This document shows, in pieces, positions 24,526 to 59,598 of a stretch of 64,000 bases of DNA; the stretch's first letter is position 1, and every line of letters starts with the position of its first letter. The notes beneath the pieces are model-generated. The model did not search any database. It was not told where the DNA came from and was given only the letters and a program-made list of their open reading frames with translations. The stretch is from Fistulifera solaris. Its lineage: Eukaryota. The stretch is taken from the NCBI GenBank assembly GCA_030295235.1, contig AP026164.1, positions 62,001-126,000 on the forward strand, in the 5' to 3' direction. Both the position numbers and the translations under genes were made by a program.

Positions 24526-27500
24526 CTACAAGAACTGCATCTGCATGCCCGCTTCGGATTTTTGTGCGCGGTTCAAACGATCTTTGAGACTGATTTCCAT
24601 CTTTTTGAATTCAGCGCTAGGCGTTTCCACAAAACGCTGCTGCGACTCAAGTCCTTCTGTGGGGCTTGTTCAGGCGCGTCGTTTCCGTCTCCCCATTGGT
24701 CGATCTCCTGCTGGAGCAACTTGAGTTTCTGCTTCGCCCGAATGCGTTCTAACGCCGAGTCTTTCGCAGTGCCTTGCTCATTGACCCAGAAGCAATTCAT
24801 TTCGCCTTTGCCTTTTATCGACACCGGTCCACGCGGTTTTAACGGAAGTTCGGGAGCCTGGTCCTTCAAGTACTTTGCTGCTTCCTCACTGCAGTTGATA
24901 CGATTCATAGCCGAGTTACTTTCCATCCGACTGGCGGTGTTGACGGTGTCACCGAACAAGCAATAACGTGGGTTTCGATTCCCAACGACATCCGCCACGA
25001 CGGGGCCCGAGTGAAAGCCAACGCGAATATTCACATGTCCTTTCGAGGGGTCGTCTTCGTCAATAAGAGTCTCGTTGGCGACAGCGACGGCACGAATTGC
25101 AAACTCGGCAATCCGCTTGGCGTGGTCGTGCGTTTGCTTCGAAACGAGATTTGTTACGGCCATGTATGCGTCTCCGATGGTCTCGACCTTGAAGATCTCC
25201 AACTCCTGCGAAAGAGCATCAAATTTGTGATACAAACGATCGAGCATGTTGGCCACTTTCGATGGATCCATTCGAGCACTCATGTCTGTGTATCCTACTA
25301 TGTCAGAGAAAAAGATTGTCACGACATCCTTGTGTTCGGGCTCGACCTTGCGACCGTCTCTCAACGCTTCGGCGACATGCCGCGGGAAAATATCAAACAG
25401 CGACACACGCGAATGTTTTGCGTTCGATGTAGCTGAAGCCGATAAGGCGGCTTCGGCATCAATGCGACGGAGACGCGTGTCGATCTCCTCAAACGTCGGA
25501 CGTTTATCTGGATCATCATCCAAACAATCAGCCATGAGAGCCTTTAACGCGGCTGGCATGTGGCTGGGAGCAGGTGGCCGCTTTCGAATTAAAGGGTCGG
25601 CAACAGCTCGCAAAACATCTCTTGCTGGTTGGCCTTCGTAGGGGTCTCGTCGTGCATATACTTCGTACAGCATGATACCGAAGGAGTAGACGTCTGTTTT
25701 GTCCGTGTTCTTTGACTCTCTTCGCAACAACTCCGGCGCCATCCAAAACGGGGTCCCCGTTCCGCCCATGTTCTTTTTCTGACTAAGACCGAAATCGGCT
25801 ACTTTAGCACGGAAACGAGTGTCAACCAGGATGTTGGCCGCTTTGAGGTCGCCGTGAATGACCTTTGGTTCAGCGGAATGCAAAAACGGACACCCTGCGA
25901 AATGTCGCACAATATTTGCAGTAGAACGTCTCCTTCCAACACCATGGTTTCGTTGTGAAGCAGGTCGTAGAGGGAACCATGATCCATGAATTCCATGACG
26001 AGCATGGGGTCTTCATCTTTTTCCATCACAGCGCCCATGACGGTCGTAATACAGGGATGTCGAAGGCGACTCAAATACCTCATCTCCTCCACAAAGTCTT
26101 CTCGCATTTTGCGGTAATTTTGGTAGTCCGATGCAACACTGTTTTTGCGGGATTTTGCCAAGCCTGAAAGAACTCCTATGTTACTCCAAGATGTTGTGCC
26201 TGAACGAGTTCCTAAACTCGCGAATGTTCCTGAAACACTTCCACGGCCCTGGCCCGAGGTTGTATTTGAGTGATCTTCGGTTGCATCTCCCTGAGTGGCG
26301 CTTGGATCAATTCCGGCGAATGCTTCGGAATCCATATCGAAGACGCTTTTACGAACAGCACTGTCGGCTTTCCCAGACGCACTTTCGGATCCGTGAAACG
26401 AGATCTTGGTTCTTTTCTTCGGCGGGATAGCGCGCTTCACGGCCACTTTTGTGCCACGATATTCTGCCGACAGGACCAAACCGTATTGTCCTCTACCTAG
26501 AATCTCTGGTGGATCGGCAAAGTGCAGCTCGTGTTTTTGCACCCTCCAAACAGAGTCGTTCGATTTTTTCTTGAATTCACGGATTAAGCACCACACCAGA
26601 CTTGCTGCTAATAGCAAGAATGCTGTGGCACCACAGGCAACGCCAATCAGCATACCTGTATTCGCGTCGGGAGGAGGAGCCAAGTCGTTTGGAAGATTCG
26701 TTGTACCGTCGTTGAATATATAATCGCCGCGTACCTGCCACTCGGAATTGTTGAAGACGTGCGTTAGAATTGTGTCGAATTTCTGGTCACCATCTGGTAC
26801 AGCTGGGTCAACAGGAACAGGAATATGATTGGCGACGCGATAGAGAGCTGTTTCCGGCAAACGAGTGCCAGTAACAGGATCAAGCACAACCCGACCACTG
26901 ATTCCATCGAATTCAATTGCCCTAAATTTTTCGTAGTGGAGAGTGCCGTTCAAAAACAGCTCCTCGCTTTCGTTGTTCACAACAGCTTGACAAGCGCTCA
27001 AACCTAAAGCGATTGCCGCTTCGTAAGCGAATGGGGACAACCCATTTGTAACAACTTGGTTCAAGAATGTGGGATCATCTGGCTGCACGAAATCAGGTGG
27101 AGGCAAATCAGGACGAGGCCAAAAATCACGCATGTAGTCCATGTCAATCTCGTTGCGCATTTTGCTCAGTTGTTCCAAGTAGGCATCATATTGTACCATA
27201 CCATTAACACCGCCTGATATTTCAAGGAGACCGACTCCCCTTTTATAATGTTAGCGTGAAGCACACGTACAATTTGAGTTTGACTTTTAAAAAACGTACC
27301 GGTACGCCTTATAAAGTGGCGAATCTTTATCAAAGGTTCGATCCACCAAGACCCCCAAGAAGGAGTCACCAAATATCCAGTTGTGCAAGCCATTCCCTGC
27401 GACGCCCTGATTGTAGGCCTCAAGCAAGAGTTCGTCGTGTGTTTCAACGGTAAAGACCAAGCAAAACACAAATCGAAATCCACTTTGCTTTACGCTTGCC

Positions 27501-28234
27501 ACTGCTGCTTTAATACTTTCTGAATTGTCATCGACTGGTATTTGTTGAATAATCAAATCAGGGACGTACTTTGCTGTTGCTTGTCGCATGCCCTCGACGT
27601 AAGCATTGCCATAAGCATCGTTGATATTGATTACAGCCAAGTGTTTGATTTGAAGTGCATTTCGTAAGTATAGCACTAATGGAACCGCATTACCTGCGTC
27701 TGAAGGTAATGTTCTGCCAAAGAGAGGATACTGACTGCGGTCATCTAGGTCGGCTGATGTCGATCCAGGTGATACTTGCGGGTAACCTAGTAGACCTGTA
27801 ACTATCGCCATGGGCATGCTGACAGCACTACGATACGCACCGATGAATGCGCAGGCTTTTCCCGTTTGCTCTACAACGTGCTTCAAAGCGACTCCGGGAG
27901 TATAGGCGGTATCCGCCGTCATCATAGTGAAGCGGATGGGACATTTCTCGTGCAAACCAGCAACTTGGGGAACGATACTTCCATCTCCTGTGTTCAAATG
28001 TTGGATAGCCAAAGCAACAGAGAAAGCGTCTTCATAAGTCGCTCGATGCGGCAAATCAGTTCCGGTTGTAAACGGTTCGATAACGCTGAGAGGACAAACA
28101 GCGAAAGGTTTCCCTTCCTGAGAAACAAAACGGTCTGCGTTGCTATTTTCAGGTCGATCGAGCGTCGCATTCGATTCGTAGAAAGAATCATAGTAGCGCA
28201 GTGACCACAGTGTTCCTTCGTTAGACTGGGCCAT
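24526..28234 (-). CDS. Receptor-type kinase-guanylate cyclase, copy 1 (ANF/Venus-flytrap ligand-binding domain, TM, kinase, class III cyclase)
   Basis: ANF-like 'AFIGAYRSAVS...PQVSPGSTSADLDDRSQYPLFGRTLPSD'; TM 'LIGVACGATAFLLLAASLVWCLI'; kinase GRGQYG/VAVK/HGDLKAAN/DFG/APE; cyclase 'FFSDIVGYT', 'KVETIGDAYM', 'PRYCLFGDTVNTASRMES'. Intron at about 27240-27299. Confidence 0.92.
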
Positions 28235-28660
28235 TTGCGACTATTGACGATTGATGATGACGAAGAAAGTGTTTGAGAGAAAATGAAGAGAAATGTGTTG
28301 TTATTTGTTTCTTGTCGCTGGAAAACGAACAAACGTCCGTGAAAGCACGAGACACTAATAGATCGGACGATAGATGTGGGGCGAAAGGCTAAAATGCACT
28401 TCACAGTCATAGTCATAAATAACAAACAACGAACAATAACTATTGTCAATACTACAATAAAATTAATACTCGATGTCTGCAGTCATTTGTCATTTTCGTG
28501 GTACATTCTACACCATCTATTTTGTATCAGTCTTATATTGGTCGTCACCAGTCACCAGTAGTCCAATGGTCCTTGGTCCTTGGTCTTTGGCACTTGGTTC
28601 TCTTTATTGGTTCTTACTTTGTAGTAGTAGGTTAGCGGCTGCACTCATGCGTGACACATG

Positions 28661-30172: not shown

Positions 30173-33100
30173 TTACAAGAACTGCATCTGCATGCCCGCT
30201 TCGGATTTTTGTGCGCGGTTCAAACGATCTTTGAGACTGATTTCCATCTTTTTGAATTCAGCGCTAGGCGTTTCCACAAAGCGCTGCTGCGACTCCAAGT
30301 CCTTCTGTGGGGCTTGTTCAGGCGCGTCGTTTCCGTCTCCCCATTGGTCGATCTCCTGCTGGAGCAACTTGAGTTTCTGCTTCGCCCGAATGCGTTCTAA
30401 CGCCGAGTCTTTAGCAGTGCCTTGCTCATTGACCCAGAAGCAGTTCATTTCGCCTTTGCCTTTTATCGACACCGGTCCACGCGGTTTTAACGGAAGTTCG
30501 GGAGCCTGGTCCTTCAAGTACTTTGCTGCTTCCTCACTGCAGTTGATACGATTCATAGCCGAGTTACTTTCCATCCGACTGGCGGTGTTGACGGTGTCAC
30601 CGAACAAGCAATAACGTGGGTTTCGATTCCCAACGACATCCGCCACGACGGGGCCCGAGTGAAAGCCAACGCGAATATTCACATGTCCTTTCGAGGGGTC
30701 GTCTTCGTCAATAAGAGTCTCGTTGGCGACAGCGACGGCACGAATTGCAAACTCGGCAATCCGCTTGGCGTGGTCGTGCGTTTGCTTCGAAACGAGATTT
30801 GTTACGGCCATGTATGCGTCTCCGATGGTCTCGACCTTGAAGATCTCCAACTCCTGCGAAAGAGCATCAAATTTGTGATACAAACGATCGAGCATGTTGG
30901 CCACTTTCGATGGATCCATTCGAGCACTCATGTCTGTGTATCCTACTATGTCAGAGAAAAAGATTGTCACGACATCCTTGTGTTCGGGCTCGACCTTGCG
31001 ACCGTCTCTCAACGCTTCGGCGACATGCCGCGGGAAAATATCAAACAGCGACACACGCGAATGTTTTGCGTTCGATGTAGCTGAAGCCGATAAGGCGGCT
31101 TCGGCATCAATGCGACGGAGACGCGTGTCGATCTCCTCAAACGTCGGACGTTTATCTGGATCATCATCCAAACAATCAGCCATGAGAGCCTTTAACGCGG
31201 CTGGCATGTGGCTGGGAGCAGGTGGCCGCTTTCGAATTAAAGGGTCGGCAACAGCTCGCAAAACATCTCTTGCTGGTTGGCCTTCGTAGGGGTCTCGTCG
31301 TGCATATACTTCGTACAGCATGATACCGAAGGAGTAGACGTCCGTTTTGTCGGTGTTCTTTGACTCTCTTCGCAACAACTCCGGCGCCATCCAAAACGGG
31401 GTCCCCGTTCCGCCCATGTTCTTTTTCTGACTAAGACCGAAATCGGCTACTTTAGCACGGAAACGAGTGTCAACCAGGATGTTGGCCGCTTTGAGGTCGC
31501 CGTGAATGACCTTTGGTTCAGCGGAGTGCAAAAGCGCACACCCTGCGAAATGTCGCACAATATTTGCAGTAGAACGTCTCCTTCCAACACCATGGTTTCG
31601 TTGTGAAGCAGGTCGTAGAGGGAGCCATGATCCATGAATTCCATGACGAGCATGGGGTCTTCATCTTTTTCCATCACAGCGCCCATGACGGTCGTAATAC
31701 AGGGATGTCGAAGGCGACTCAAATACCGCATTTCCTCCACAAAGTCTTCTCGCATTTTGCGGTAATTTTGGTAGTCCGATGCAACACTGTTTTTCCGATA
31801 TTTTGTTAAGCCGGACAAACTTCCAACATTGCTCCAAGACGTTGTTCCAGATTGTGTACCAGAATTATTGGTGCCTGGGCCCGAACTTGTTCCCGAATGG
31901 TCTTCCGTTGCATCACCGTTTGTACTACTAGGATCATTGCCAACTAAAGGCTCGGAATCCACATCAAACAAGCTCTTGCGTGCTGCCTCGCTGGCTTTTC
32001 CCGATGAGCTCCCTGAACCATGGTTTGGTTTCTTGGCCTTTTTCTTCGGCGGGATAGCGCGCTTCACGGCCACTTTTGTGCCACGGTATTCAGCCGACAA
32101 GACCAAACCAAATTGGCCTCTACCTAAAATCTCTGGTGGATCGGCAAAGTGTAACTCATGCTTTTGCACCCTCCAAACAGAGTCATTCGATTTTCGCTTG
32201 TGTTCGCGAATAAGACACCACACCAGGCTTGCCGCCAATAGGAGAAAGGCCGTTGCACCGCAAGCAACACCAATCAGCATACCTGTATTCTCGTCAGGTG
32301 GAGGAGCTACATCGACAGGAAGATTCGTTGTACCGTCGTTAAAAATGTATTCGCCACGCGTCTGCCATTCGGAATCAACAAATACGTGCGTCAAAACCGT
32401 GTCAAATTTGTGGTCGCCTTCCGGTGCGCTGTTATCAGTGGGAACGGGGATAAAGTTTACGACACGATAGAGTGCTGTTTCTGGCAAACGTGTGCCAGTT
32501 GAAGGATCAAGCACGACCCGGCCGCTGATTCCATCAAACTCTGTTTTCTTGAACATCTCATAGTGCTGCGTACCGTTCAAGAACATGTCTTTACTTTCAT
32601 CATTTTCAAACGACTGACAAGCACTCAAGCCCAACGCAATCGCCGCTTCATAAGCAAATGGCGCAAATCCGTTTGTAACGACTTTGTTCAAGAAGGTCGG
32701 ATCATTTGGCCGTACGAAATCAGGTGGATCTAAATCGGGACGAGGCCAAAGACTACGCAAGTAGTCCATATCAACTTCGTTGCGCATTTGGCTTAATTGA
32801 GCTATGAAAATATCAAACTTTTGCATTCCACTAACACCGCCTGACAGTTCAAGTAGACCAACACCTCTAATTAAAACAAAATGAGTTTCTCCGTTGTTAG
32901 TGTCGTGCGATGCCCGGACAGAAACTCGGCTCATCGTTCATAGAGAGCAATTACTCACCTGTATGCTAAAGAGAGAGGCGAATCTTTTCAAATATCCGAT
33001 CATCCAAGACACCAAGGAATGAGTCTCCGAAAATCCAATTGTGCAAGCCATTTCCAGCAACTCCCTGATTATAAGCTTCCGTCAAAAGCGCATCGTGCAT

Positions 33101-33893
33101 TTCAATGTCAAAGACCAAGCAAAATACAAATCGAAACCCACTCCGTTTGATGCTCGCAACCGCAGCTTGAATGCTTGCTGCGTTCTCATCCACCGTAATT
33201 TGCTGAATGATTAGATCTGGTGTGTACTCGACGGCTGCTTGTCGCATGCCGTCCACGTAGGGAGTTTCCGTACGAGTCGTTGATGTTGACCACAACCAAC
33301 GAAGTCATCTGCAATACATTTCGTAAATACAGTACCAGCGGAACAGTGTTTCCGGCATCGGAAGGTACAGTCCTTCCAAAGAGAGGATACTGACTACGAT
33401 CATCTAAATCCGTTGACGTAGATGCTGAACTGACTTGAGGATAACCAAGTAGGCCTGAAACAATAGCCATGGGCATGCTGACCGCACTGCGATATTCACC
33501 GATGAAAGCGCAGGCTTTTCCAGATTGATCTACGACGTGCTTCAAGGCGTTACCTCCCGAGTCGGCGCTGTCCGCCGTCATCATAGTGAATCGAATGGGG
33601 CATTTCTCGTGCAAACCGGTAACTTGAGGAACGATGCTTCCGTCTCCTGTATTCAAATGTTGGATAGCTAGTGCGATCGAAACAGCATCTTCGTACACTC
33701 CTCGAAAAGGAATATCGTCTCCTGTTGTAAAAGGCTCGACGAAGCTAAGAGGACAAATGGCGAAAGGCTCCCCTTCCTCGGAAACAAAACGATCGACATT
33801 GCTGTTTTCAGGTCGATCGAAAGTTGAGTTTGATTCGTAGAATGAATCGTAATAACGAAGTGACCAGAGCGTGCCTTTGTCAGCTTCGGTCAT
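30173..33893 (-). CDS. Receptor-type kinase-guanylate cyclase, copy 2 (tandem paralog)
   Basis: Same architecture as copy 1. The kinase C-lobe and cyclase DNA are near-identical to copy 1 (offset about 5648 bp); the extracellular domain has diverged. Intron at about 32866-32958. Confidence 0.92.
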
Positions 33894-34290
33894 GTTAGAC
33901 AATTCTTGAGGTCGTATTTGTGCGTCAAAGAATGAAGTCGAAAGGTAGGCGAGAGGCGCAACAATGGGGATAAAGTTGAAAGTTGAATGCGACGGATTTC
34001 AAATAAATGCAATGCAAATTGATCGGGCGGAGTTTTTCGCAAAATGCAAGGCCCTGGTACTGCGAGCGTCACTGTACTGGGACGAGAAAAAGAGATGGAC
34101 GACGGAAAACGGAGAGAACGGAGATCCGAAGTCCGTGAATGATCATCATCGGCTAAATACGATCTGTACTTATTATACCATTGTAGAGAATTATGAATTA
34201 TTGTCTGCAAATTCGAAAGACCGAAGACCGAGACCAAGCGAATAGCAGAAGTAAGAAAGTATAGTTCGACACGCTCTAAAATAACAAATA

Positions 34291-43070: not shown

Positions 43071-44423
43071 TCAGACCTCTTCTGCGTAGTCCGAAGCAAG
43101 CTCGAAAGCAATCACAAAAAAATTGAAGCCGCCCTTTGTAATCTCAAGTTTGATCGGAACTCTACCTTGGGATAAAGACACATTTGGTATATCAACAGAA
43201 ACCCATGAGAACCAACTTTCAGTGGTTGGAAGCGAGTCAAACGTTCCATAGACTTCTTGTGTTTGCGGGTTGACTACTTGGAAGGAACCCCATCCTTCTG
43301 GACTGGCGATATAAAACTGCAAGATGTAGATCCCTGAGGACACCACATTTAACGTATACTCAATCCAGTCACCGGGATCAAGACTTCCAATGTTGCCATT
43401 GTTTGGATCCACTTCAACCCCATTCGTATTCGTATAGTCTTTGGCTGGAACAAGATAATGATTATCTTCACTATCGCCCGTAGCTGAATCGATAAAATTG
43501 AGACCAAGGAATTCCAAATTAAAGCCTCCTTGCAAAACGAATATTTCCATATTGTGAGTTTCTGCATCGAAGTATGCTTCCCCGACCAAAACCGTTGTCC
43601 ATTCTTCCCAGCTCGATGTAGTGGGTAACGTGAGAATTATCCCAAAAACTTGTCCTGTTTGCCGATGCGTTATAGCGAATGACCCAACATCTTCTGGATT
43701 CGAAACTCTGGCGTAGATTTCATATTTTCCCGATTGCGGCAAAGTTAGATTAAAGAATAGCTCATCGCCGGAGAAAATGTAATCCAGATTGAGGGTCCCT
43801 TCCGATGATTCTGCTAATTCAACCCCAACGTGCCCCCGGTCGAAATTCTTGGCAAACACCATGTAGTCATACGTTACGAAAGCCTCCACCAAAGTGAAAT
43901 TCATACTTAAAAGATTCCACCCACTTTGAAGAGAATTTACGCGCAGGGTTGTAGAGCCTTTTCGTAGAGCAACCAAGCCTGCATCCATTGTTTCCCAATT
44001 CTGCCATCCTTGTGTATTGGCTACCCCCGAAAATACTTTATAGACTTCGCTAGTCCCTTGATTCACCAAATCAAAGGCACCCTCTCCTGTTTTACTTGCA
44101 GTTCGTATGGTCATGTTGAAAAGTCCTGCAGTCGACAAGGCCATGTCGAAGGAGACCCAATGTCCCTGTTGCATCCAACCTACATCGAAACCACCTTCAG
44201 ACGATGGTTCTAATAGGATACCGTAGTAGTCGCACAATTCCGCGGATGTAATAGTTACGGTGTCACCAACGTTGAGAGGTGTTGTGGAAATAGGAAGGCT
44301 ACCACACTCGATTGGCTCGGGCACAGTACCATTTTGGCGCCAAAAATCATCGTCTTGCGTTTGTGCCTGAATTGCATTTGCGTTCGTTCCGAGCACGACG
44401 ACGACCAACAACAAAGAAAGCAT
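43071..44423 (-). CDS. Secreted protein with three CBM6-like carbohydrate-binding modules
   Basis: Signal peptide. Three modules with 'VGWMQQGHWVSF', 'LDYIFSGDELFF' and 'IGSLDPGDWIEY', each with RxAS/IAS, T.gW..W.T and G(W/F)N motifs. No catalytic domain seen. Confidence 0.82.
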   Translation of the reverse strand: MLSLLLVVVVLGTNANAIQAQTQDDDFWRQNGTVPEPIECGSLPISTTPLNVGDTVTITSAELCDYYGILLEPSSEGGFDVGWMQQGHWVSFDMALSTAGLFNMTIRTASKTGEGAFDLVNQGTSEVYKVFSGVANTQGWQNWETMDAGLVALRKGSTTLRVNSLQSGWNLLSMNFTLVEAFVTYDYMVFAKNFDRGHVGVELAESSEGTLNLDYIFSGDELFFNLTLPQSGKYEIYARVSNPEDVGSFAITHRQTGQVFGIILTLPTTSSWEEWTTVLVGEAYFDAETHNMEIFVLQGGFNLEFLGLNFIDSATGDSEDNHYLVPAKDYTNTNGVEVDPNNGNIGSLDPGDWIEYTLNVVSSGIYILQFYIASPEGWGSFQVVNPQTQEVYGTFDSLPTTESWFSWVSVDIPNVSLSQGRVPIKLEITKGGFNFFVIAFELASDYAEEV

Positions 44424-44915: not shown

Positions 44916-46191
44916 TTAAAGATTACTCTTGCCCACCAGCAACGACGGGTGACGCGTCACGACGCTAGATACTGGAATAGCTGCAATATGATCCACTCCA
45001 CACAGCGCCATACATGATTTAATTTCATTCTTCAACAGTTGTAACATTTGTTCCACTGCAGCTCGTCCCCCAAAGGCCAGACTAAAGAAAACCGGTTTCC
45101 CGATACCAACGGCAGTGGCACCCAAGGCAAGCGCCTTGACTACGTCGCTTCCGTGTCGAACACCTCCATCCAAAAAGATAGGGACTTGGTGTCCAATGGC
45201 CCCGACAACTTCCGGCAGGACATCAATTGCAGCCAGGCATCCATCCACTTGTCGCCCTCCGTGATTTGAGACCATCACAGCATCAGCACCCGCTTCCACG
45301 GCCAAAATCGCATCCTCTTGCGTCATAATTCCCTTGATAATGAGAGGAATCTGGGGCGGTAATTTTTCTTTGAGCCAACGCACATCCCTCCACGAAATCT
45401 GTGTGTCGAGCAATTGTTCCGAGTTTTGATCCCATGCCGAGTGTGTTTGTCCATTGTAGATAGCTTTTTTGCCCGAGTTTATGTTATTATCGCGTGTATG
45501 ATCATCGTCGTAATGTACTAAGCGATGCGGGGCAGGTAGAGCATTGAATCCGTTGCGTGCATCGGCAGGCCGATATCCAAATCTTACCGAATCGACCGTC
45601 AAAAGATGCCTAGACGTTCGTAAGCGTAAGAGGTGAGGCTCTAAAAGAGTCACTGTATCTATTATCCAGCAGAGCAAGCATACCTTGATATCCGGCCTGT
45701 AAAGCTCGTTCAATCAATCGCCAGGTCCATTCTCGGTCGTTCAATATGTAGGATTGATAAAAGCGCAAACACTGCGGTGCAGCCGCGGCGACCTCTTCGA
45801 TCGACTTTGTAGCATGTTGTGACAATCCGTACAGAATACCGGCTTTCTCACAAGCGCGTGCGACGGCACATTCACCCTCTTGGTGCATCAGAGCTTGTAC
45901 GCCGGCGGGCGAAACAAACACAGGCATACTCAGTGTGTGACGCTGCTGCTGCCACGGTAAAACGACGCGTGTGTCAATAGCCGCAGCGAGAGAACGCAAA
46001 ACACGTGGTCGCAAATACCAGCGCTTCCACGCATTTCGGTTTTCATTTAACGTTTGCTCATCATCAGCTCCGCTAGATACATAATCGTACAGGTCTTTTG
46101 GAAGTTGTTGTTGCGCCAACAATTGAAAGTCATTTACGCAGACGGGACGGTCGATCGTCTTGATTGTGTGTTTCGTGCCTTCTCGTAGCAT
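44916..46191 (-). CDS. Peroxisomal FMN-dependent (S)-2-hydroxy-acid (glycolate) oxidase
   Basis: 'YDYVSSGADDEQTL', 'LRPRVL', 'LTVD', 'IIKGIM', 'VSNHGGRQVD', 'DGGVRHGSDVVKALALGA'; PTS1-like C-terminal SNL. Intron 45610-45683. Confidence 0.9.
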
Positions 46192-46713
46192 ATCAATGAT
46201 TTTATTGTAGCAGAAGATTGTCAATGAAACAAAATTATTTTGGTCCGCGTCGCTTGTTGGCGGTGCAAAAGATCTTTGGTAGAAAATGATGTCACGAGGT
46301 CGATGGTCGATCACGAGCTTACTCGTCAGTCCCGCAAAATTCGGGCGACCGCGTGTCGATGGGCTGAACTCCTCATGACTAAAATGCAGTCGCGACGAAA
46401 GGTCGCTTACACTTTGTACTATAGTGAAATCGAAATGGAATTTAGGCAAGGCATTTTGAACAATTAGTTGCCGCAAAGAAATGAAAAATGACAGACTTCT
46501 CGAGTTTCTCCGTTTTGCCGCTTTATTGAATCGCGAAATATGATATCAAGACTTGTCCGCACTCCGATCTAGTTGCGAATGATACAAAAAATTGAGTGTT
46601 AGCGGCGGAATCGAGGACGCCGCTTTCACTGGTTTCGAATCTCACAATGAAACGCGTGCTAGTCATGTGGTCCTAATGAATAGAGATAAGTATCGTCGAA
46701 ACAATGAGTGGTA

Positions 46714-48042: not shown

Positions 48043-49500
48043 AAGAAACGAAGAAGAAACGCAGCAGATGAGTAAGGAAGGGACTTCTTATGTTTTATTG
48101 CTAATGGCAAAAGAGATAACTTTTCGCGACGGCGACGAGAGCGATTGGGTCAGCATTCAGCATGCGTCCCGGTCTGTCCACTGGCCGATTAAAGATGCTG
48201 ACACAGCACGCAACAAATTTTCAGTCACGAGTTGTATGCGAAGTTTATTGATAGTGAATGCGGATACGGAGTAGATGAGATATACTTTGTCCCAACCAAA
48301 TGAGTTGATAACCTCTAGCAACGCCATCATCTTTATGATCTTAGCGGAGACGATCAACTTCATTTTTAATGCTTCAAATTAAAAAATACATTGCGAGACG
48401 AACGAAAGGAAAGCAGCTCTCAGACGTTGCAAGGGTGACGGTGCCTTTCCAAGTGTTGCGGGGGCTTTCCATGTGAATCATGGGGTCACATAGTGTGAGT
48501 GCACGCATCGACACGGATCCTGGTAACTGGTTGTAAATTACAGGCGTTTCCGGCTTCATGGGCACTTTGTTCCGTGCTGTCCAAGGGCTTCGCACTCAAC
48601 TTTATTCAATCGCAAACGCTGCTGCGTTCAGCTCTGGTCATGGCATTTCTAGTTCGCCATTCGAATTGAATTTAAAAAGATGGACCTACGATAAAAGTCG
48701 GCCGATGAAGTAGGTAATCGCCATGTTATCAACCGTCTCTCTCAAATCCATTCAGTCGACTTCGCTCTGCAATCAAAGTAGACTTCATGGAAAAGCTGAA
48801 GAGCGCGATTCGTGTGAGTTGTTCTGCAATCCGCTTTTCTTCGCTAGCATTCGACGAACTTTGAAAAATTGAGCACGGGGACGGGACCCGCGGAAGTGAT
48901 GAAAGAATTGGTTCAGCTTTTTGTTTCAACTCTTTCAACGCATGGCAAGTGGCGAGTGGCGAAAGTTCTAAAAGGGCGCGAATTCTAGAATGTTGAATGC
49001 CATAGAAAAAGTACTGGTCCACGTGCAAAAGTGTCATCACTTTAAGTTTCATAGGTATAGCTATAGTACTGTGATAGGTAATAGGGCAAAGAATAAAGAA
49101 TAGAAATCACTCTTGCTAGAATTAGTCAGTCATCAGTCAGTCCGAGAAATTTTAATTTTAAAAAACAAATATATACGTAGTACTAATATTTTCCTGGTTG
49201 TGAGTGCCGTGTGACTGTTCAAAAATGTTACCACAGTGAAAGAGGCTTTGATTTTTTGTTCTTGTTTTCCAGTCGTTTTGGCCCAATTTGTCAACGGCTC
49301 TGCCATAATTTTTTCATGCACTGAAATACTTATAGTGAAAGCATTCGTTCTTTTCCTCTCACACGATTATTCTGCTGCGGCGCGCGATTCCTAACATGGC
49401 GATAGTAAGAATTGAATACCACTCGCAGCGCTCTTTTTGTCGTCAATGCATCTCAACGAATAACTCCCGCACCACGAAATCAAAATATCCCACCAAGACG

Positions 49501-52500
49501 ATGAGGAACATGATGATGAAGCGGCTTTTACCAATAGCGCTCTCCATACTTAGAGTAACTTATATAATAGCCATGCCTTCGAGGCGGCTAATATGGGGAG
49601 TTGATCCAAATTACGCAAATGAATTCAATTCACTGGTCGCCGCTTCCGATTTCGTCATCTCGCAAGGCGTTCAAGTAGGAAACGATACAGTAGAAGGGCT
49701 TCCCACAATAACATTTGATGAAGCAGGAGACTGGGCTGCGTATTCACTCAATCTACAAAATGCTAGCGCTTACGAGCTTCAGGTGCGAGTAGCCAGTCCG
49801 ATTGGCGAAGGAGCATTCGTCGTTGGGAACCTGGAAAAGCAAGAGCTCTATGCTACCGTGAATTCTCTTCCTGCAACGGGAGACCTTGCCAATTCCGCGT
49901 CAATCACCCTTCCGCTTACGCTACCTGCTGGAAACTTTACACTCCAGATTGGAGCTATACGGCCTGGCTGGAGTTTAATCTGGATGTCTCTCGAAGAGCT
50001 TGCTTTCAACTCATCACAAACAGAAGTTCCTCTTTCACCAGTATTCGTGTCGAACGCAGCGAACTTCTCAGCAATGGATGGAATCACAACCGGAACATTA
50101 GCTGATGGGTCTTCATTCATTGGGTTTCTCGACCCATCAGATTGGGTCTCATACAATGTAATGCTTCCTTTCACCGGTACATACAGAGTCGACGTCAGCG
50201 TCGCGAGTCCGGAAGGTGCTGGATCCTTTCAAGTAGCTAATATGATGACAAGAGAAGTGTACGGCACTTTTGACGATCTCCCTGCGTCTGGCGATTGGAC
50301 GGTATGGAGAACAGCGAGCGCGATTATTGGACTACCCGAAGGCGAATGGATGATGGAATTGACATTTTTGGAAACTGGAATGAATATAAAATCGGTGACG
50401 ATTTCACCTATAGAATCTGTGCCATCAGAAGCACCGGTAAACGAATCCTCTGTGGTGCCAAGCCTTCCACCAGAAACAGAGGTGCCGGTGATACCTAACG
50501 TTTCAAAGAATAGCTCCTACATCGTACCAGACGATGCTTATTCCATAACTATACCAGCGTCAATGTACGCTTCTATGGATGGCGTCGAAATGGGGGTTTC
50601 ACCTGGTGGGGAATCGATTATTGAATCGCTCGATCCGGGTGATTGGATTGCCTTTCCAGTATCGCTGCCGAAAGCCGGTCCGTTTATGATGGAAATGAAC
50701 TTTTCCAGCCCCAGCGGCGAAGGCAGCTTTGAAGTCTACAATCTGATAACTCGTGAGCTGTATACCAGGTTCGATCGACTAGCTGCTGATCAAAACGTTT
50801 CTCAATTCAGTGCGGTCAGCGCTGTAGTAATACTTCCTGAAGGTGATTTTTTCTCGAGATCAGTGTCATCGAAGGAGGATGGAAACTACGGGATTTGTCA
50901 CTCGTGGAGCTCGAGGAAATATCAATGTCAAATTCAACACTGCCCCCCGTACCGTTGTTTATGCAAAGTATACAAGCTGTCAATTACTCCTCTATGAACG
51001 GCATAACAATCTCTGAAGACAAGAAAGGCAACCAAGTTGTAAGCGACTTCGATGCCGGCGACTGGGTTGCTTACCCATTAAATCTACCATATGATGGAAC
51101 CTACCGGTTAAAAGTTAATGTAGCTAGTCCCCAAGGCCAAGGCTCTTTCACTGTGGAAAATTTTGAGACGGAACAAGAGTACAAATTGATTGACAGTTTG
51201 GTGTCTAGCGGAATGTGGGAGAATTATACCACGGTTGATACCTTTTTGGTTTTACCAGCTGGTCTGTGGACCGTGAAAATTCATGCCATGGAACCGGGCT
51301 GGAATTTAAAGTGGTTAACCCTGTCGAAGGATGGTGAAATACAACCATCCGATTTCAATATCACGATTCCGGCAATCGACTACAACGACATGATTGGTAT
51401 TGAAGTTCAAGATATGGCCAATGGAGAACCCTATGTTGGGTTCATAGATCCTGGTGATTCTCTCTCATACGAGCTGACACTCCCTACACGAGGAATATAT
51501 TCGATGCAATTAAGGGTCGCCACACCACTGGGGGGAAGGAAGGATAGCCATCTCAGACAAGAATACGACGGAGGACTACGGCATCGTGACCAATTTCCCG
51601 CCGACGGGCGACTGGAACACCTTTGAGATGTTTTCGACAGAGCTTGAGCTTCCAGGTGGAGCATGGACAATGCAAATGGAGTTTCTCGAAGGAGGCTTCA
51701 ATTTAGAGATGTTAGGCCTTACACTACTCCAAGTAATCGAAACAGATCCCCCGACAGTAGCGCCGTCGATAGCGCCCACTGTTGAGCCGCTTTTTAGTGT
51801 TATGATTTCCGCCGTCGACTACAACGACATGATTGGTATTGAAGTTCAAGATATGGCCAATGGAGAACCCTATGTTGGGTTCATAGATCCTGGTGATTCT
51901 CTCTCATACGAGCTGACACTCCCTACACGAGGAATATATTCGATGCAATTAAGGGTCGCCACACCACTGGGGGAAGGAAGGATAGCCATCTCAGACAAGA
52001 ATACGACGGAGGACTACGGCATCGTGACCAATTTCCCGCCGACGGGCGACTGGAACACCTTTGAGATGTTTTCGACAGAGCTTGAGCTTCCAGGTGGAGC
52101 ATGGACAATGCAAATGGAGTTTCTCGAAGGAGGCTTCAATTTAGAGATGTTAGGCCTTACACTACTCCAAGTAATCGAAACAGATCCCCCGACAGTAGCG
52201 CCGTCGATAGCGCCCACTGCTGAGCCTCTCTTCCGTCTCACGATCCCTGCTGTGAACTTTACGTACATGGAAGGAATTGCAGTGCAGGAAACAGATGGAG
52301 GGGATCCTTTTGTAGGATTCATCGATGCTGGAGATTCCGTTGCATACAGGATAGATCTTCCTGCTCGTGGCGTCTATATACTCCAGGCAAGGCTGGCTAG
52401 TCCAGTTGGTGAAGGGTTGTTTACGGTATCTGACTGGGAGTCTTTTGAGGAATATGCTTTCGTTGATCAATTTCCACCAAGCGGTGACTGGGAATCATTC

Positions 52501-55500
52501 GGGATTCTTTCGAAAGAAGTTGAACTACCAGGGGGGGAGTGGACAATGCAGATTGAATTTTTAGAGCCTGGATTCAACTTAGAAAGATTGATTTTAACGT
52601 TGATGGAAGAAATCGAAACTGAACCGCCGATAAGTGACATGCCAACGATGGTTCCGTCCGCTATATCACTCAGCTCCGCACCATCCGTAGAATCCCTCTT
52701 TAATGTTATGATTTCCGCCGTCGACTACAGCGATATGATTGGTATTGAAGTTCAAGATATGGCCAATGGAGAACCCTATGTTGGGTTCATAGATCCTGGT
52801 GATTCTCTCTCATACGAGCTGACACTCCCTACACGAGGAATATATTCGATGCAATTAAGGGTCGCCACACCACTGGGGGGAAGGAAGGATAGCCATCTCA
52901 GACAAGAATACGACGGAGGACTACGGCATCGTGACCAATTTCCCGCCGACGGGCGACTGGAACACCTTTGAGATGTTTTCGACAGAGCTTGAGCTTCCAG
53001 GTGGAGCATGGACAATGCAAATGGAGTTTCTCGAAGGAGGCTTCAACTTAGAGATGTTAGGCCTTACACTACTCCAAGTAATCGAAACAGATCCCCCGAC
53101 AGTAGCGCCGTCGATAGCGCCCACTGCTGAGCCTCTCTTCCGTCTCACGATCCCTGCTGTGAACTTTACGTACATGGAAGGAATTGCAGTGCAGGAAACA
53201 GCTGAGGGACAAACTTTCGTGGGGTATATCGACGCAGGCGATTCTATTGCTTACAATTTGAACCTTCCAGCACGTGGAATTTATTCGATCCAATTAAGGG
53301 TCGCTACACCACTGGGCGAAGGAAGAATAGCACTTTCCGACTGGGAAACGTTTCTTGATTATGGCATGATAAGGGACTTTTCGTCGACAGGCGACTGGAA
53401 CACTTTTGAGATGTTTTCGACAGAGCTTGAGCTTCCCGGTGGAGTATGGACCATGCTAATGGATTTCCTGGAAGGTGGCTTCAACTTCCAAATGCTAAGT
53501 CTCACACTACTCCAGATCGTTGAGACAGATCCTCCGACAATAGCACCATCGCTAGCGCCAACGGTGGAGCCTCTCTTCCGCCTCACCATCCCTGCTGTGA
53601 ACTTTACGTTTATGGAAGGTATCGCCGTGCAGGAATCAGCCGAGGGAGATACGTTTGTCGGATATATTGACCCCGGTGACTCTGTGGCTTACGCTTTAAA
53701 ACTACCAACACGAGGAATATATTCGATGCAATTAAGGGTCGCCACACCACTGGGCACAGGGCGAATTGCGATCTCAGACCTTGATACGATGGAGGCCTAC
53801 GGATTAGTAAGCGAATTTCCGCCAACAGGAGACTGGGACACCTTCGAGCTGTTTTCGACAGAGCTTGAGCTTCCAGGTGGAGCATGGACAATGCAAATGG
53901 AGTTTCTCAAAGGAGGCTTCAACTTAGAGATGTTAGGCCTTACACTACTCCAAGTAATCGAAACAGATCCCCCGACAGTAGCGCCGTCGATAGCGCCCAC
54001 TGCTGAGCCTCTCTTCCGTCTCACGATCCCTGCTGTGAACTTTACATACATGGAGGGTATTGCAGTACAAGAAACAGTTGAGGGAGAGACTTTTGTGGGA
54101 TATATTGACGCCGGCGACTCTGTTGCTTACGATTTGAACCTTCCAGCACGAGGAATATATTCCATTCAACTGCTTGTTGCGAGTCCTTTAGGCTCGGGGC
54201 AAATTGCAATCTCCGATTGGGAAACCTTTCAAGAGTACGGACTTTTGACTGCATTTCCTGCAAGTGGCGATTGGAACAATTTCTTATTGTTAACGGCAGA
54301 GCTTGAGCTTCCGGGTGGTGTATGGACTATGCAAATGGAATTTGTAGAGGCTGGTTTTAATTTCCAGGCGATTGGTCTCACATTGCTTAAAATTATTGGG
54401 ACAAGTCCGCCAAATATGTCACCTACTACATCGTCGGCGCCTAACGCTTCACCCACTTCGCCTGTAACGTTTGACCTTCTAATACCAGCTGCTAGCTACT
54501 TGTACATGGAAGGAGTGACAGTTCAAAACTCTTCGGAAGGCACTGCGTTCCTTGCTGGGTTGGACACTGGTGACTCTGTTGCATATGCTGTGTCGATTCC
54601 AGCTAGTGGATTGTACAAGCTTCAAGCAAGTGTGGGAAGTCTTGTTGGTGATGGTAAATTTGTCGTCGCCAATTGGGTAACATTTGAAGAATACGCGTTC
54701 ATTGATGAGTTACCATCTACGGGAGATTTGTCACAGTTTGATCTTGTTACAACAGATTTTGATCTTCCTAAGGGCCCCTTGATCATACAGATAGAGGTCA
54801 TTGAACCTGGCTTCTCTCTTGAATCGTTGAGATTTTCCAGCACCGAGGCTCAGACCACCACCCCTATCGAGACGATACAGCCCTCGGGAAATTTCACTTA
54901 CGATCCGACTGAAATACCTACCGAAGTTCCGACGCAAATTCCATTGTTTTCTCTTGAGATTCCTGCCGTGAACTTCACCTACATGGACGGCATTTCTATT
55001 GAAGAAACGACCGAAGGAGTCCCATTTGTTGGATACATCGATCTAGGAGATAGCGTGTCATATTCTGTTTTGTTACCATTCGCTGGTTCTTACAGACTGC
55101 AATTGAACGTTGCAAGCCCTGAGGGCACAGGTCAAATGAAGATTTCTAACTGGGAAACATTTGAAGACTATGGAATGATAGGTAATTTTCCGGCCACCGC
55201 CGATTGGGTAACCTATGAAAAAGCATTCACTGACTTGGAACTTCCCGGTGGGGAACTAATTCTTCATTTTGAAGTAGTGGAGCCTGGTTTTAATCTGGAG
55301 TCCCTGGTCATCTCATTGCTCGAAGCAATCCAAACCCTTGCCCCTTCAGAATCCGGCAGCAATCCTCCTCTCTTTTATATCGATATTCCTGTTGAGGACT
55401 TTTTGTACTTCGAGAATGTGGAAGTTTTAAATTTCGAAGGAGAACCATACCTCGGCTCTTTAGCGCCAGGTAGTTCTGTAGCTTATTCTGTCGAACTTCC

Positions 55501-56595
55501 GTCAGCCGGTGCGTATAAGCTCCACTCGGGCGTCGGTAGTCCTGATGGCAAGGGGCATTTGGCGTTTCGAATTGGGAAACGTGGACTGAATATGCTTTCA
55601 TCAACAACCTTCCGGCGACTGGAAGCTTGACTTCATGGGAAACGGTTTCTACCGATCTAAGTCTTCCGGCAGGAGATATCATACTGCAGATTGAAATATA
55701 CGAAGGTGGATTTACCTTACAATCATTAGCGCTTGAGCTGACAGAAGATTTGGAGACAAATGTTCCGATCGGCCCAATCGAGACCAAAGCTCCAATAGGA
55801 CCTGGTGAGAGCCTAAGCCCAACTCGAAGCCCAATAGGCTTTAATGAAACCATGTCGCCGACCGGCCCCGAACCGAATCCGGAAACAGCGGTCCCAACTG
55901 TAACCCAGACAGAAGCTCCTGAGTTTTTCCTCTTTATTCCTGCACCAAACTATACGTCTTCGAATGGTGACTTTGGTTTAGAGACTGCCGAAGACGGAAC
56001 TCAAAATGTTGCTTTTCTTGATCCTGGAGACTGGCTTGGCTATGACATATCTCTGCCATATGAAGGGCGGTACAAACTGGAAGCCAACATAGCGAGCCAA
56101 GCTGGTAATGGTTCGTTCGTTGTGACGAATGTCGAAACCCAAGAAGAGTACGCGTTTGTAGACAATCTCCCTGTTACAGGTGACTGGAACGTGTACGAGT
56201 CCACAACAACAGAAGTAACTCTTCCGGACGGAGATTTCACTTTGCAAATTTTTATTGTTGAATCAGGCTTTAATATACGATGGTTCTCCTTGGAGCTTCT
56301 TGAAGCCACTGGAGGGGGCGGAGGAGGATCGTCGAAATCATCCTCATCCTCGAAAAAATCTAAGAAGTCAAAGAAATCGAAGAAATCAAAGTCATCGTCG
56401 TCGTCCACAGAGAGCAGTGGCAAAGCATCTAAGAAAGTAAGCAGTGGCAAAGCATCGAAGAATGTAAGCAGCGACACACAGAGCAGCGGCAAAGCATCTA
56501 AACAAACAAGTAGTGGCAAAGCATCCAAAAAGGGCTCAGTGGCTTCCCGCCAGTTGAAAAAAAAATCAAGGCGACGGAGTTTTGCAAACAGGTAG
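49501..56595 (+). CDS. Giant secreted protein (~2360 aa) with ~15 tandem CBM6-like modules, Pro/Thr/Ser linkers and a Ser/Lys-rich KXXK tail
   Basis: Signal peptide then RRL. 15 modules with consensus A..Y..M.G...VGFID.GD...Y.L.LP..G.Y....RVASP.G.G...P.TGDW..F...GFNL. ORF pieces join through four 1-nt frameshifts (~50850, 51530, 52875, ~55560). Tail KKSKKSKKSKKSK, then (SSGKASK)x4, then RQL. Confidence 0.85.
51370..54045 (+). repeat. Near-identical ~438-bp intragenic repeats encoding CBM6 modules
   Basis: About 51377-51780, 51815-52218 and 52721-53125 are almost identical at DNA level; partial copies recur to about 54045. Confidence 0.9.
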
Positions 56596-56782
56596 ATGTA
56601 GTATATTTTGCTACATCACAAGCTATCTATGACCCACTCAAAAACAATTATGAAACGACCGCACTCCCACGGGAGAAACCTACATGTCCTGTATGTACAG
56701 TTAAAATATAAAATTATTGACGTTGAAACTACCATTAAGGTGTGATAATATGACCCACCTTCATTACCACCATTTCGGCAAC

Positions 56783-59598
56783 TCAAATAGCGTAATTGGG
56801 GTGAACGGCAAGAGGTGTGTTTGCTTCTTCCTGCCTGTTACCTGGCATGGGCCCAACGGTGACGAGGACGTGATCGGTATTGACGAGTCGTCGTAAAACA
56901 AGGTTAACCTTCTTCCTCGTAGCTTCCAAGGCCTCAACAGAATCGCCTAGATCCGATTCGACCTGTCTTAAATACCACTCTACTACATCCTTCCATTTCC
57001 AGTAAACTGGGTCACCTTCGTCGTCGTCTGACTCCAACGATCTCAGCTGCGTCGCTATCATATGCGCGATAGCCTCGTACTCTTCAAACGAGATCTTTGT
57101 CTTTTTCTTCTCTCTCCTAGAACGAGACTGTTCCGTGGGTTCGTACTCGCCTGGTCTTTGAGATTCCGCTTCGTCCCCGTGAAGTGGCGCATCCTCGGGA
57201 TTATCTTCCCCATCATCGTCGCCACCATTGCCATGTTCATCACCTTCGTCTACCGCGACATCCGACGTCTCTACCCTCAAAATGCTGGTTTTTAGTAAGC
57301 GAAATGCTTTGTTCACATAGTCGGGTTGGATTTCAGAATCACAATGTAACCGCGCCAATGCTTCGGATAGCCGAATCAACGACTCTAGCTGACGCACAGT
57401 AATACGATACGCTGAGCGACTGGCACCCAGACTATCACTTTGACGTAGTCTTCGATAGCAATCCACCAGAACGCGCTGAGAAGCCGGCGTAATCTTCGGA
57501 TGAATGGTCCGAGCAAAACGAATGTAGCGTTGGATTTGCTCCATCGTATAAGGTGCCGTGACGAGCGTTTCTTTGCACCTATGAACGTTCAAGATGTGTT
57601 GCGCAACGCGACGGTCGGTTGCTGGATTGCAATCATCCAGAACGACAAAGAACAAGTCGAAACGAGAAAGAATCGGTGCACTGAGCGCGACATTTGCGCT
57701 CAAAGTCTTGCTGCGATCGTATCTTCCGTACACAGGATTGGCAGCCGCAAGGATGCTAGCCCTGGCGTTCAAAGTTGCCTGAATACCTGCTTTAGTGATA
57801 CTGATCGTCTGTTGTTCCATAGCCTCATGGATAGCCACCTGATCGGACGGATCCATCTTATCAAACTCGTCAATGCAACAGATTCCATTGTCAGCAAGAA
57901 GCAATGCACCAGCCTCAATGCCATATTCTCCCGTATCCGAGTCTCTCTGAACAGCCGCCGTTAAACCTGCTGCACTACTTGCCTTTCCCACACAGTAGAC
58001 GCTGCGATTACTAAAGGCGTGCACATACTTGAGAAACTGTGACTTGGCAGTGCTGGGGTCTCCCACAATGCAAAGATTAATATCACCACGGAGCTTCAAG
58101 CCATCCGGAGCCGTCTTGTGCACACCTCCCAGTAGTTGCAATAGAATTCCTTTCTTAATCTCGAGATGACCTGCTGTATTGGGACAGATGGACTGCGCCA
58201 ATAGCTCGTACAAATTCGGCGTACTACGCATATCGCGTATTTCTTGTCGTTGCTGCGGAGTGAGTTCCAATACGACCTGCTCGGGAGTATCTTCTTGCGG
58301 CTCTACTCCATTGACCCAGAGGTTGACTTTGTTGCTTTTTTCGGAAGCACCGAGAATACTGCTCACTAAGAAGCACGTACGATACGTCAATTCCTTGACA
58401 CCAATGGCTTGCAATCCCCGCACACCCGTACTGTCGGTATTTTGATTGGAAATACTGCGCGGAGCTTCTCCCGCTCGAGCCAGTGCCCCACCATCGGGAA
58501 TGACGACCCAACTTCCCGTGAGTATGACCGTATCACCCGCCTTGCAGCGCTCGACCATTTCGCCGCGGCAAAAGACATCCATACTACGTGGCATGCTTCC
58601 GGGGGTATCTCATGACTCAATTCTTGGACTCGCAACTTTTGCCAATCGACAAATTCCGACATGCTGGTTTCTAATGTAAAGTGCCGCTTGTTTTTACAAC
58701 GAGGATTGCGACAGCGCGTAGGACGTGTGTAATGGAATTGTTGTTGAATGGCTTGTGAAACCAGCCCGCAGTCTTGACAGCGAAAGACTCCTTGCAAGAG
58801 TTCGGGACGAACTTCACTACTGCGTGTGACGGTTCCTTTGACACTGACCAGGCTTCCAATTTGTTCCATGCGCAAATGACGCAATTTTCCGAGAACGGGT
58901 AAATCATGAATGGCGACAAAGAAACTCTTGTGCGTATGCAATTCGGGATGTTGATAATGAATAAATTGCGTCAATCCTTTGCGAAGAAAGGGCTCGAAAC
59001 GAATGAATTCAGCTTGTACAGCCTCCGCTAGATCATAATCGTGTCGTTGCAAATGGGAGAAATCAATCAATAACGTATACACGAGTTGATTTTGATTTCC
59101 CCGATCTTCATCGGTTTCCTGTTCTAAGAGTTTGCGGGCAATCCGTGACGCTTGATCGACGTAAGGATAGTATTGTGTTTCTTCGTAATCACCATCCGCA
59201 GTCTCGACTGTCGTCTGTTCCGAACTATATAAATAAAGAAGGAAAAGAATGAGTGAGTGAGAAAAGGAAAAGGAAATCCTATACATGCATGCATGCATGT
59301 ATGCATGAATGAATGAATACGGAGTCAATGACACCAATGACACTTACAAAGTATCAAGAAACGCCATGAATCGTTCTTTCACAATTTCACCATTCGGATC
59401 CGTGACTTCCGGTTCTACAACAACCGCTTCATCGGCTTCGCGTCGTTCGGGTTGCGGCATGGCCGCTACTTCCGCCATCGCTTCTGCTTGCTCTCGTGTC
59501 GGAATCGCGGCAGCTCCTTCTTCTTCTTCTTCTCCTCCTCCTCCTCTTCCTCCTGTTTCATTCTCTTCTTGCGTACGTACAGACGCCACTGAAGCCAT
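56783..59598 (-). CDS. MCM6: DNA replication licensing factor MCM6
   Basis: 'GTVTRSSEVRPEL...FRCQDC', 'FVDWQKLRVQE', 'RGDINLCIVGDPSTAKSQFLKY', 'IEAGALLLADNGICCIDEFDKM', 'ILSRFDLFF', 'YRITVRQLESLIRLSEA'. Intron 59225-59347; frameshift near 58600. Confidence 0.95.

Follow-up and report, generated by a model that had tools for sequence, protein, structure and literature searches.

Background

How the polysaccharides of a diatom cell wall are held to its silica is the question raised by one very long gene of Fistulifera solaris. Passages of PMC3633991 describe a mannan-rich, polyanionic layer that lines the silica on its inner side; they place beta-1,3-glucan (callose) between thecae, on the cingulum and on valves in formation, and they call the attachment and function of frustule polysaccharides 'poorly understood'. 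This poorly understood attachment covers the mannan-rich diatotepum, callose at thecal junctions and extracellular polymeric substances (EPS). The gene lies on the forward strand of a stretch of 64,000 nucleotides (nt) of GenBank contig AP026164.1 (positions 62,001 to 126,000; hereafter the window, with positions counted from its first letter), where a preliminary description had noticed a string of CBM6-like modules ending in a silaffin-like tail. A protein that joins a glycan-binding array to a silaffin-type lysine cluster is a concrete candidate for the link between polysaccharide and silica, and we put forward here a reading that is plausible, if a little short of probable: a secreted lectin chain of 15 CBM6 modules that would sit on wall polysaccharide and would be fixed to biosilica by its tail.

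Results

An array of 15 CBM6 modules

All five frame pieces that make up the gene score above the gathering threshold of the Pfam family CBM_6 (PF03422), with E-values from 1.9e-15 to 3.6e-60 and scores of 57.7-202.2 bits against a cut-off of 28.9. The CBM_35 and CBM_35_2 models, which describe a related module type, likewise exceed their own cut-offs. No Pfam family of any other kind does so in the frame pieces, and the protein thus has no catalytic domain, in agreement with the preliminary description. A profile built from 11 intact modules detects all 15 modules of the read-through product, and so also the four that had no part in building it. The earlier count of about 15 modules, and the expectation that a Pfam scan would return about that many CBM6 stretches, are therefore borne out, with 14 stretches passing in Pfam and 15 with our own profile.

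Searched against the PDB, the module profile matches the CBM6 pair of Acetivibrio alkalicellulosi Cel5A (AaCel5A; 8zvk, E 2.4e-52), Cellvibrio mixtus CmCBM6-2 (1uxz, E 4.4e-23), the CBM6 of ZgLamC (5fui, E 4.3e-19) and Bacillus halodurans BhCBM6 (1w9s, E 7.2e-11). Judged by these profile matches, the nearest characterised relatives of the modules are beta-glucan-binding CBM6s, laminarin binders included. According to passages of PMC11926323, the CBM6s of 8zvk are within the chain sequence and unresolved in the crystal. An AlphaFold model of module 10 (pLDDT 91.0) gave top Foldseek matches that are all CBM6, led by 5fui (TM-score 0.89, root-mean-square deviation (rmsd) 1.8 Å) and 1uxz (TM-score 0.86), and the predicted fold is the CBM6 beta-sandwich (jelly-roll), which superposes on solved CBM6 structures.

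Module residues were mapped to 1uxz through a HMMER alignment, in which we take Y33, W92 and N121 to form cleft A and W39 to belong to cleft B. On these assumed roles, the cleft-A triad of an aromatic residue (Y/F), W and N is kept in 10 of the 15 modules, and most modules look binding-competent. At the position equivalent to W39, modules 1-4 and 15 alone have Trp, and the other 10 have Ser. Module 15 retains both aromatic sites; modules 12 and 14 are degenerate at cleft A.

The array is uneven in its degree of internal similarity. Modules 5 to 11 are mutually 53-96% identical (modules 5, 6 and 8 at 92-96%), and Tandem Repeats Finder reports a 438-nt period in this block; the outer modules match the remainder at 24-47% identity. 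Between the modules run short Pro/Thr/Ser linkers of 2-45 amino acids (aa), so that the composition given for them in the preliminary description stands, while the term 'mucin-like' overstates what is there.

A Gly hinge and a Ser/Lys-rich tail

Module 15 is followed by a Gly6 hinge and then by the exact Ser/Lys sequence that the preliminary description had quoted. The tail holds four SSGKASK units. Ser makes up 35% and Lys 24% of the final ~90 aa, and of the final 100 aa, 34 are Ser and 23 are Lys. The protein's 11 KXXK motifs all fall within aa 2283-2341, and all six pentalysine-type windows (at least five Lys in 12-14 aa) within aa 2277-2353. To the tail we applied the screening rule of at least 18% Ser and at least 10% Lys per 100 aa. 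In a six-frame control comprising 122 open reading frames (ORFs) of at least 100 aa (24,938 aa), stretches with at least 10 Lys and at least 18 Ser per 100 aa occur at two places only: the tail itself, with up to 23 Lys and 35 Ser, and a marginal one at 32,046-32,100 on the minus strand, with up to 11 Lys and 20 Ser. The composition of the tail is well beyond chance.

These features recall those of proteins associated with diatom biosilica. Pentalysine clusters, described in passages of PMC9650480 and PMC5501833 as five non-consecutive Lys within 12-14 residues, target silaffins to silica, and a screen for silaffin-like proteins in PMC5501833 combines a signal peptide with repeated KXXK, where X is S or G, 1-6 residues apart. 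PMC4557024 describes RXL as a processing site and clustered KXXK in such proteins, and PT repeats are reported to be common to many silaffin-like proteins (PMC5501833, PMC9650480, PMC4557024). The tail shows pentalysine clusters under this definition and clustered KXXK under the looser description, the X residues being K, A or S. No cingulin-type alternation of KXXK-rich and Trp/Tyr-rich regions was found along the protein, KXXK being confined to one C-terminal block.

Contigs from four public runs (X1-X4) were aligned to 49300-56700, X1 being the organism's own run and X4 containing a wetland-metagenome relative. The DNA of the tail, its A9 run included, is identical in X1 record 8, X2 record 16 and X3 record 24 (0 differences, 0 gaps). 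A second sequence variant, found in both X1 and X4, differs from the window at 37 of 375 positions over 49378-49752 and is wholly divergent upstream of 49378, which is consistent with two homoeologs or with a close relative living in wetlands. The variant contigs differ by indels in the tail, with loose ends at 56337 and 56444, and loose ends of a second variant encode, in frame, a sequence rich in Ser and Lys. In X4 there is also a 10-nt insertion at 56537 (depth 3.8), within the last 60 coding nt, that would alter the extreme C-terminus after the RQL region; from this insertion, conservation may not extend to the last residues of the tail.

A probably secreted, cysteine-free and acidic chain

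Residues 9-27 form the most hydrophobic 19-aa window of the entire protein on the Kyte-Doolittle scale, and this N-terminal segment is its sole hydrophobic segment. Public model P0024, a close relative considered below, begins MMKRLL. The presence of non-triplet indels upstream of 49501 in relatives indicates that the upstream region is non-coding. The preliminary description had proposed a signal peptide with RRL shortly after it; the hydrophobic N-terminus and the RRL are both in place, while the signal peptide is called by hydropathy only. We infer that the product is secreted. It carries 30 N-x-S/T sequons, compared with 14.9 +/- 3.4 in shuffled sequences (none of 500 shuffles attains 30), and is probably N-glycosylated.

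Cys-free and extremely acidic, the product runs to about 2,365 aa, its conceptual translation comprising 2,362 positions with an X placed at frame breaks. There is not one Cys in the whole protein. The body (aa 31-2265) has 67 Lys plus Arg against 311 Asp plus Glu, with Lys at just 1.2%, and the 97-aa C-terminal end has 28 against 3; the resulting net charges are about -244 for the body and about +25 for the tail.

Homoeolog, organism and protein family

In a search restricted to longer proteins, the window's product matched GAX17408.1 (P0012), a hypothetical protein (FisN_5Hh053) of Fistulifera solaris with 2,051 aa, at 87% identity over 97% of the query; UniRef lists it as 'CBM6 domain-containing protein'. 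Alignment over the whole gene gives 1,771 of 2,038 residues identical (86.9%), with no module gained or lost, and the 15-module array is conserved in this homoeolog in the same module order. The public model begins inside module 2 and ends off-frame in the DNA of module 15, without signal peptide and without tail; its last residues being off-frame module 15 DNA, the absence of the tail is, like that of the signal peptide, an artefact of annotation. P0024 represents a third variant, an N-terminal model 88.5% identical to the window and 86.1% to P0012.

The neighbourhood points the same way. The window contains a small tri-CBM6 paralog that is letter-identical to the public protein P0174 (NCBI, UniRef, EukProt). 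The contig of GAX17408.1 also carries GAX17405.1 (FisN_5Hh050), a cluster-mate of this paralog, so that the window corresponds by synteny to that region, in the same genome or in one very close to it. Versions of the tri-CBM6 gene at 93% identity occur in at least four other records, and since one of them is on P0024's own 19,638-bp contig, synteny is conserved there as well. By these matches the source is Fistulifera solaris or a very close relative, upholding the diatom origin proposed earlier, and the window probably represents the second homoeolog in allodiploid F. solaris.

Beyond these close variants, relatives thin out quickly. With the module profile as query, 8,077 of 1.84 billion representatives matched at E <= 0.001. 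Among the best 150 of these 8,077, only P0024, P0023 (787 aa, 5 modules) and P0025 (733 aa, 5 modules) reach ~100-160 bits per module, the others scoring ~60 bits, and few-module diatom relatives may lie hidden below those best 150. Both five-module proteins show N-glycosylation sequons and a signal peptide of eukaryote-like character; P0026 and P0027, lower-scoring matches whose sequences were examined, look bacterial. The closest non-self modules in BLASTP, at 35-46% identity, belong to short poly-CBM6 proteins, including F. solaris FisN_16Lh309. A search among proteins of similar length gave 11 matches, all remote bacterial CBM6 proteins of 22-31% identity, and the search among longer proteins gave, beyond the homoeolog, 10 remote matches, most of them with glycoside-hydrolase or other accessory domains; the five whose source is named are all bacterial. 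The ESM Atlas holds CBM6 clusters only, bacterial where a taxon is recorded, with all scores at 0.85 or less, and no relatives were found in two metagenome scans. Taken across databases, these search results suggest that secreted poly-CBM6 proteins form a small family in this lineage, in which the 15-module form with a lysine tail has been seen only here and, presumably, exists in the homoeolog.

Frame breaks in the gene

The ATG at 49501 and the stop at 56593-56595, both on the plus strand, stand at the limits given in the preliminary description. A single continuous frame does not run between them: the plus strand from 49339 to 56595 is made of five overlapping stop-to-stop frames rather than one continuous ORF, and four frame breaks had been overlooked (Table 1). 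The pieces are parted by one-base indels, each within a homopolymer. At every junction the CBM6 module sequence carries on unbroken in the next frame, and the frames 3' of the breaks remain open for 0.7-2.7 kb with intact conserved modules. Introns were considered as the source of the frame changes and ruled out, the module sequence being gapless across each break; a true GT..AG intron is present, by contrast, in the neighbouring gene for an FMN-dependent dehydrogenase. No joints were seen in the read contigs aligned over 49300-56700, and as none are needed either, the gene is read as intronless.

Of the four break sites, three (50846, 52875 and 55549) are brought back into frame in read contigs. 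At the first, both X1 contigs carry an extra base after 50846 (C in one and T in the other; depth 26.8 + 17.5 of 44.4), and the protein models P0012 and P0024 read straight through. At the third, where X1-X3 give no cover, the sole X4 contig drops one base at 52875 (depth 49.3 of 49.3). At the fourth, an A is inserted after 55549 in X1 (two contigs, depth 46.1 of 46.1), in X3 (depth 9.76 of 9.76) and in X4 (two contigs, depth 31.3 of 31.3). X1 record 7 equals the window over 903 nt apart from the restoring base, which marks it as the same genotype. The second break (51530) is presumably an error too, judging from the identical context at 52875 and from read-through in P0012. The homoeolog protein, indeed, reads through all four sites. 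The neighbouring essential gene MCM6 shows the same type of error, a C5 homopolymer frameshift within its OB domain, which indicates that homopolymer errors affect the whole assembly and not the CBM6 gene alone. Read contigs, the MCM6 error, homoeolog read-through and the open downstream frames together identify the breaks as assembly errors; the four frame breaks are probably homopolymer errors, and the gene probably intact and intronless.

Table 1. Features of the CBM6 gene and of its neighbours, in window coordinates
Feature	Position	Strand	Remarks
Whole gene	49501..56595	+	no introns; product ~2,365 aa once the four one-base errors, as we probably have them, are read through
Frame pieces	49339-50997, 50847-51626, 51514-52971, 52859-55630, 55546-56595	+	
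Probable signal peptide for the endoplasmic reticulum, aa 1-25	49501..49575	+	called by hydropathy; start may be any Met codon in 49501-49518
RRL, aa 28-30	49582..49590	+	RXL-type candidate propeptide cleavage site, shortly after the probable signal peptide
CBM6 modules 1-4	49600..51353	+	divergent, 24-40% identical to the others; include break 1
CBM6 modules 5-11	51336..54409	+	recently expanded block
CBM6 modules 12-15	54446..56322	+	include break 4
Frame break 1	50847..50852	+	T6 run, one base short in the window
Frame break 2	51530..51535	+	G6 run; in-frame sister copy at 51964 has G5
Frame break 3	52875..52880	+	G6 run; 70-nt context identical to break 2
Frame break 4	55549..55554	+	one base missing by AAGGGG (G4 near 55551)
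Gly6 hinge	56311..56328	+	from module 15 to tail
Ser/Lys-rich polycationic tail	56329..56592	+	88 aa
(KKS)n run	56353-56391	+	within the tail
RQL, aa 2348-2350	56548-56556	+	12 residues from the C-terminus, then KKKSRRRSFANR
Tri-CBM6 small secreted paralog	43071..44423	-	450 aa; signal peptide, no Lys tail; three genes from the giant gene
FMN-dependent dehydrogenase (glycolate-oxidase-like)	44916-46545	-	short GT..AG intron at ~45620-45710
MCM6	56783-59343	-	two frames; one-base deficit in a C5 run near 58600, inside the OB domain

Neighbouring genes

The rest of the window holds receptor-type guanylate cyclases, a ferrochelatase, an EF-G-like GTPase and a glycolate-oxidase-like gene, and is ordinary diatom-type nuclear DNA. 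Two tandem paralogs of receptor-type guanylate/adenylate cyclases lie at 24573-28482 and 30173-33998, both on the minus strand. Each has an ANF-receptor ligand-binding region and a kinase-homology domain, and in both the kinase domain is split over two frames at the same profile position, by an intron or an error.

Discussion

Proposed role

We think it likely that the gene encodes a matrix protein that is secreted and binds glycans multivalently. Because 10 of the 15 modules keep the cleft-A residues of beta-glucan-binding CBM6s, the chain would act as a multivalent, non-catalytic lectin gripping wall or surface polysaccharide. The closeness of the modules to beta-glucan- and laminarin-binding CBM6s makes beta-1,3-glucan, the callose reported at diatom girdle and valve junctions, the leading guess at a ligand. 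The tail, because nearly all lysines sit there, would target and dock the chain in the manner of silaffins, fixing it by one end to biosilica, possibly after modification of its Lys and Ser; that it docks to silica is conceivable, and on balance doubtful. In its complete form, the proposal is a glycan-to-silica adaptor, with the modified tail in or on biosilica and the CBM6 chain gripping callose or another frustule polysaccharide; such an adaptor would couple the organic layer physically to the mineral, for instance in sealing girdle or valve junctions, and we hold this full version to be unlikely in all its parts at once. The tail might just as well attach to anionic polysaccharide or to the acidic body of an adjacent chain.

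Alternatives

Several observations weigh against a silica-bound lectin. A polycationic tail would bind any polyanion and not silica specifically. Among the silaffin hallmarks that the preliminary description had claimed, lysine clusters (of the pentalysine type) and loosely clustered KXXK are present, while none of the 11 motifs follows the strict rule in which X is S or G, and RXL tripeptides, five in ~2,360 aa, are not enriched, their positions alone being suggestive. The protein might be a cross-linker of matrix or mucilage that has nothing to do with silica, its CBM6 array on secreted or wall glycans and its cationic tail on polyanionic polysaccharide (EPS, or mannan that is sulfated or uronic) or on the acidic bodies of neighbours, giving a gel, a biofilm or an adhesion scaffold. 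The extreme charge split between body and tail favours electrostatic self-association or polyanion binding, and the nearby tail-less tri-CBM6 paralog, with further CBM6 proteins of the same species, suggests a general secreted lectin family. It fits, too, that Fistulifera is a raphid pennate diatom, and that frustule mannans are described as polyanionic in passages of PMC3633991. The Ser/Lys pattern of the tail is nevertheless nearer to silaffin-type clusters than to a generic basic patch, and the near exclusion of Lys from the body is as expected if the residue is reserved for modification or targeting; neither point is decisive, and we rate this cross-linker as somewhat unlikely. The tail might also be functionless or removed, through C-terminal low-complexity drift or cleavage at RQL or elsewhere, leaving a plain secreted poly-lectin that might serve at the cell surface to bind glucans of the laminarin kind or glycans of microbes. 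The tail has been seen in this lineage only, no comparable Ser/Lys window (60 aa with at least 10% Lys, at least 18% Ser and Lys plus Ser of at least 30) occurring in any of 171 related proteins, with none outside the lineage. Low-complexity Ser/Lys runs change length fast, the variant contigs here differ by indels, and the public homoeolog model is without a tail. Set against this, that last absence is the annotation artefact already described, the variant contigs remain in frame and Ser/Lys-rich, and the frame stays open for 88 codons beyond the hinge, so that a functionless tail seems to us distinctly unlikely.

Other points concern the remainder of the silica-bound lectin reading. An Arg lies inside the h-region of the N-terminal hydrophobic segment, for which the signal call was made from hydropathy alone; five of the 15 modules lack the full triad, which module 4 has in part and modules 1, 3, 12 and 14 have lost, and the cleft assignment itself leans on the roles that we presume for 1uxz. 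As to the gene being intact, the G6 sites at 51530 and 52875 have no cover from contigs of the window's own genotype, G5 was seen only in the ~95%-identical wetland relative and only at 52875, with no read row at 51530, and X1 and the assembly may share one source project. The window with its four frame breaks, two of them in these G6 runs, could then be a pseudogene, a copy with real frameshifts decaying in an allodiploid that retains an intact homoeolog. Yet window-identical X1 contigs hold the restoring base at 55549, as both X1 contigs do at 50846, all breaks fall in homopolymers of an assembly in which MCM6 has the same defect, and each downstream frame is open over its 0.7-2.7 kb with its conserved modules intact; decay of the gene is very improbable.

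Significance

Were the adaptor reading true, the protein would be the first molecule known in diatoms to couple an organic layer to the mineral, and its C-terminus a natural silica-targeting tag fused to a functional protein array, with relevance to biosilica immobilisation. The host is genetically transformable. Gene models for this family in public databases are either cut short or interrupted by homopolymer errors, so that proteomic and comparative screens based on them would miss the signal peptide and the tail. We regard the gene as a good candidate of moderate standing, whose functional claim is motif-based only, the link to silica being drawn from motif resemblance and nothing else.

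Comparison with known systems

No published diatom-encoded CBM6 protein, and no account of this architecture, was found in the literature, as judged from listings and abstracts, which leave supplementary proteome tables uncovered; no publications naming the homoeolog accessions were found either. The preliminary suggestion that the architecture is undescribed therefore holds for the papers covered, though not for databases, where the homoeolog is already present as a hypothetical 'CBM6 domain-containing protein'. GAX17408.1 shares with the window the module order and the neighbouring tri-CBM6 gene (FisN_5Hh050), and differs in that its model is without signal peptide and tail.

With bacterial CBM6s (5fui, 1uxz, 1w9s) the modules share the Pfam family, the fold (TM-score 0.86-0.89, rmsd 1.6-1.8 Å) and, in 10 of 15 cases, the cleft-A positions, at a sequence identity of 25-26% in structural alignments. 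In bacteria one or two such modules are attached to glycoside hydrolases, whereas here 15 occur without a catalytic domain in a eukaryote, and the cleft-B Trp of the bacterial modules is Ser in 10 of the 15. Silaffins, silaffin-like proteins and cingulins resemble the protein in having a secretory N-terminus (here a probable one) followed by RXL (here a candidate site), a Ser/Lys region with KXXK and pentalysine windows, and Pro/Thr stretches, a likeness known from sequence alone. The Ser/Lys region is most of a silaffin and less than 4% of this protein; X in KXXK is S or G in silaffins and K, A or S here; cingulins have alternating Trp/Tyr-rich regions, of which this protein has none; and the large folded lectin array sets it apart from both groups. 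The girdle proteins p130 and p150, described in passages of PMC4557024 as having multiple chitin-binding domains, are alike in concept, as diatom wall proteins of repeated carbohydrate-binding domains. They are unlike it in domain family, module number and lysine tail, no chitin-binding Pfam family matching in the frame pieces of the giant CBM6 protein, and we claim no homology. CBM6 modules, silaffin-like lysine clusters and wall proteins with multiple carbohydrate-binding modules, such as p150, are thus each of a known kind, and it is the combination of 15 CBM6 modules with a lysine tail that appears undescribed.

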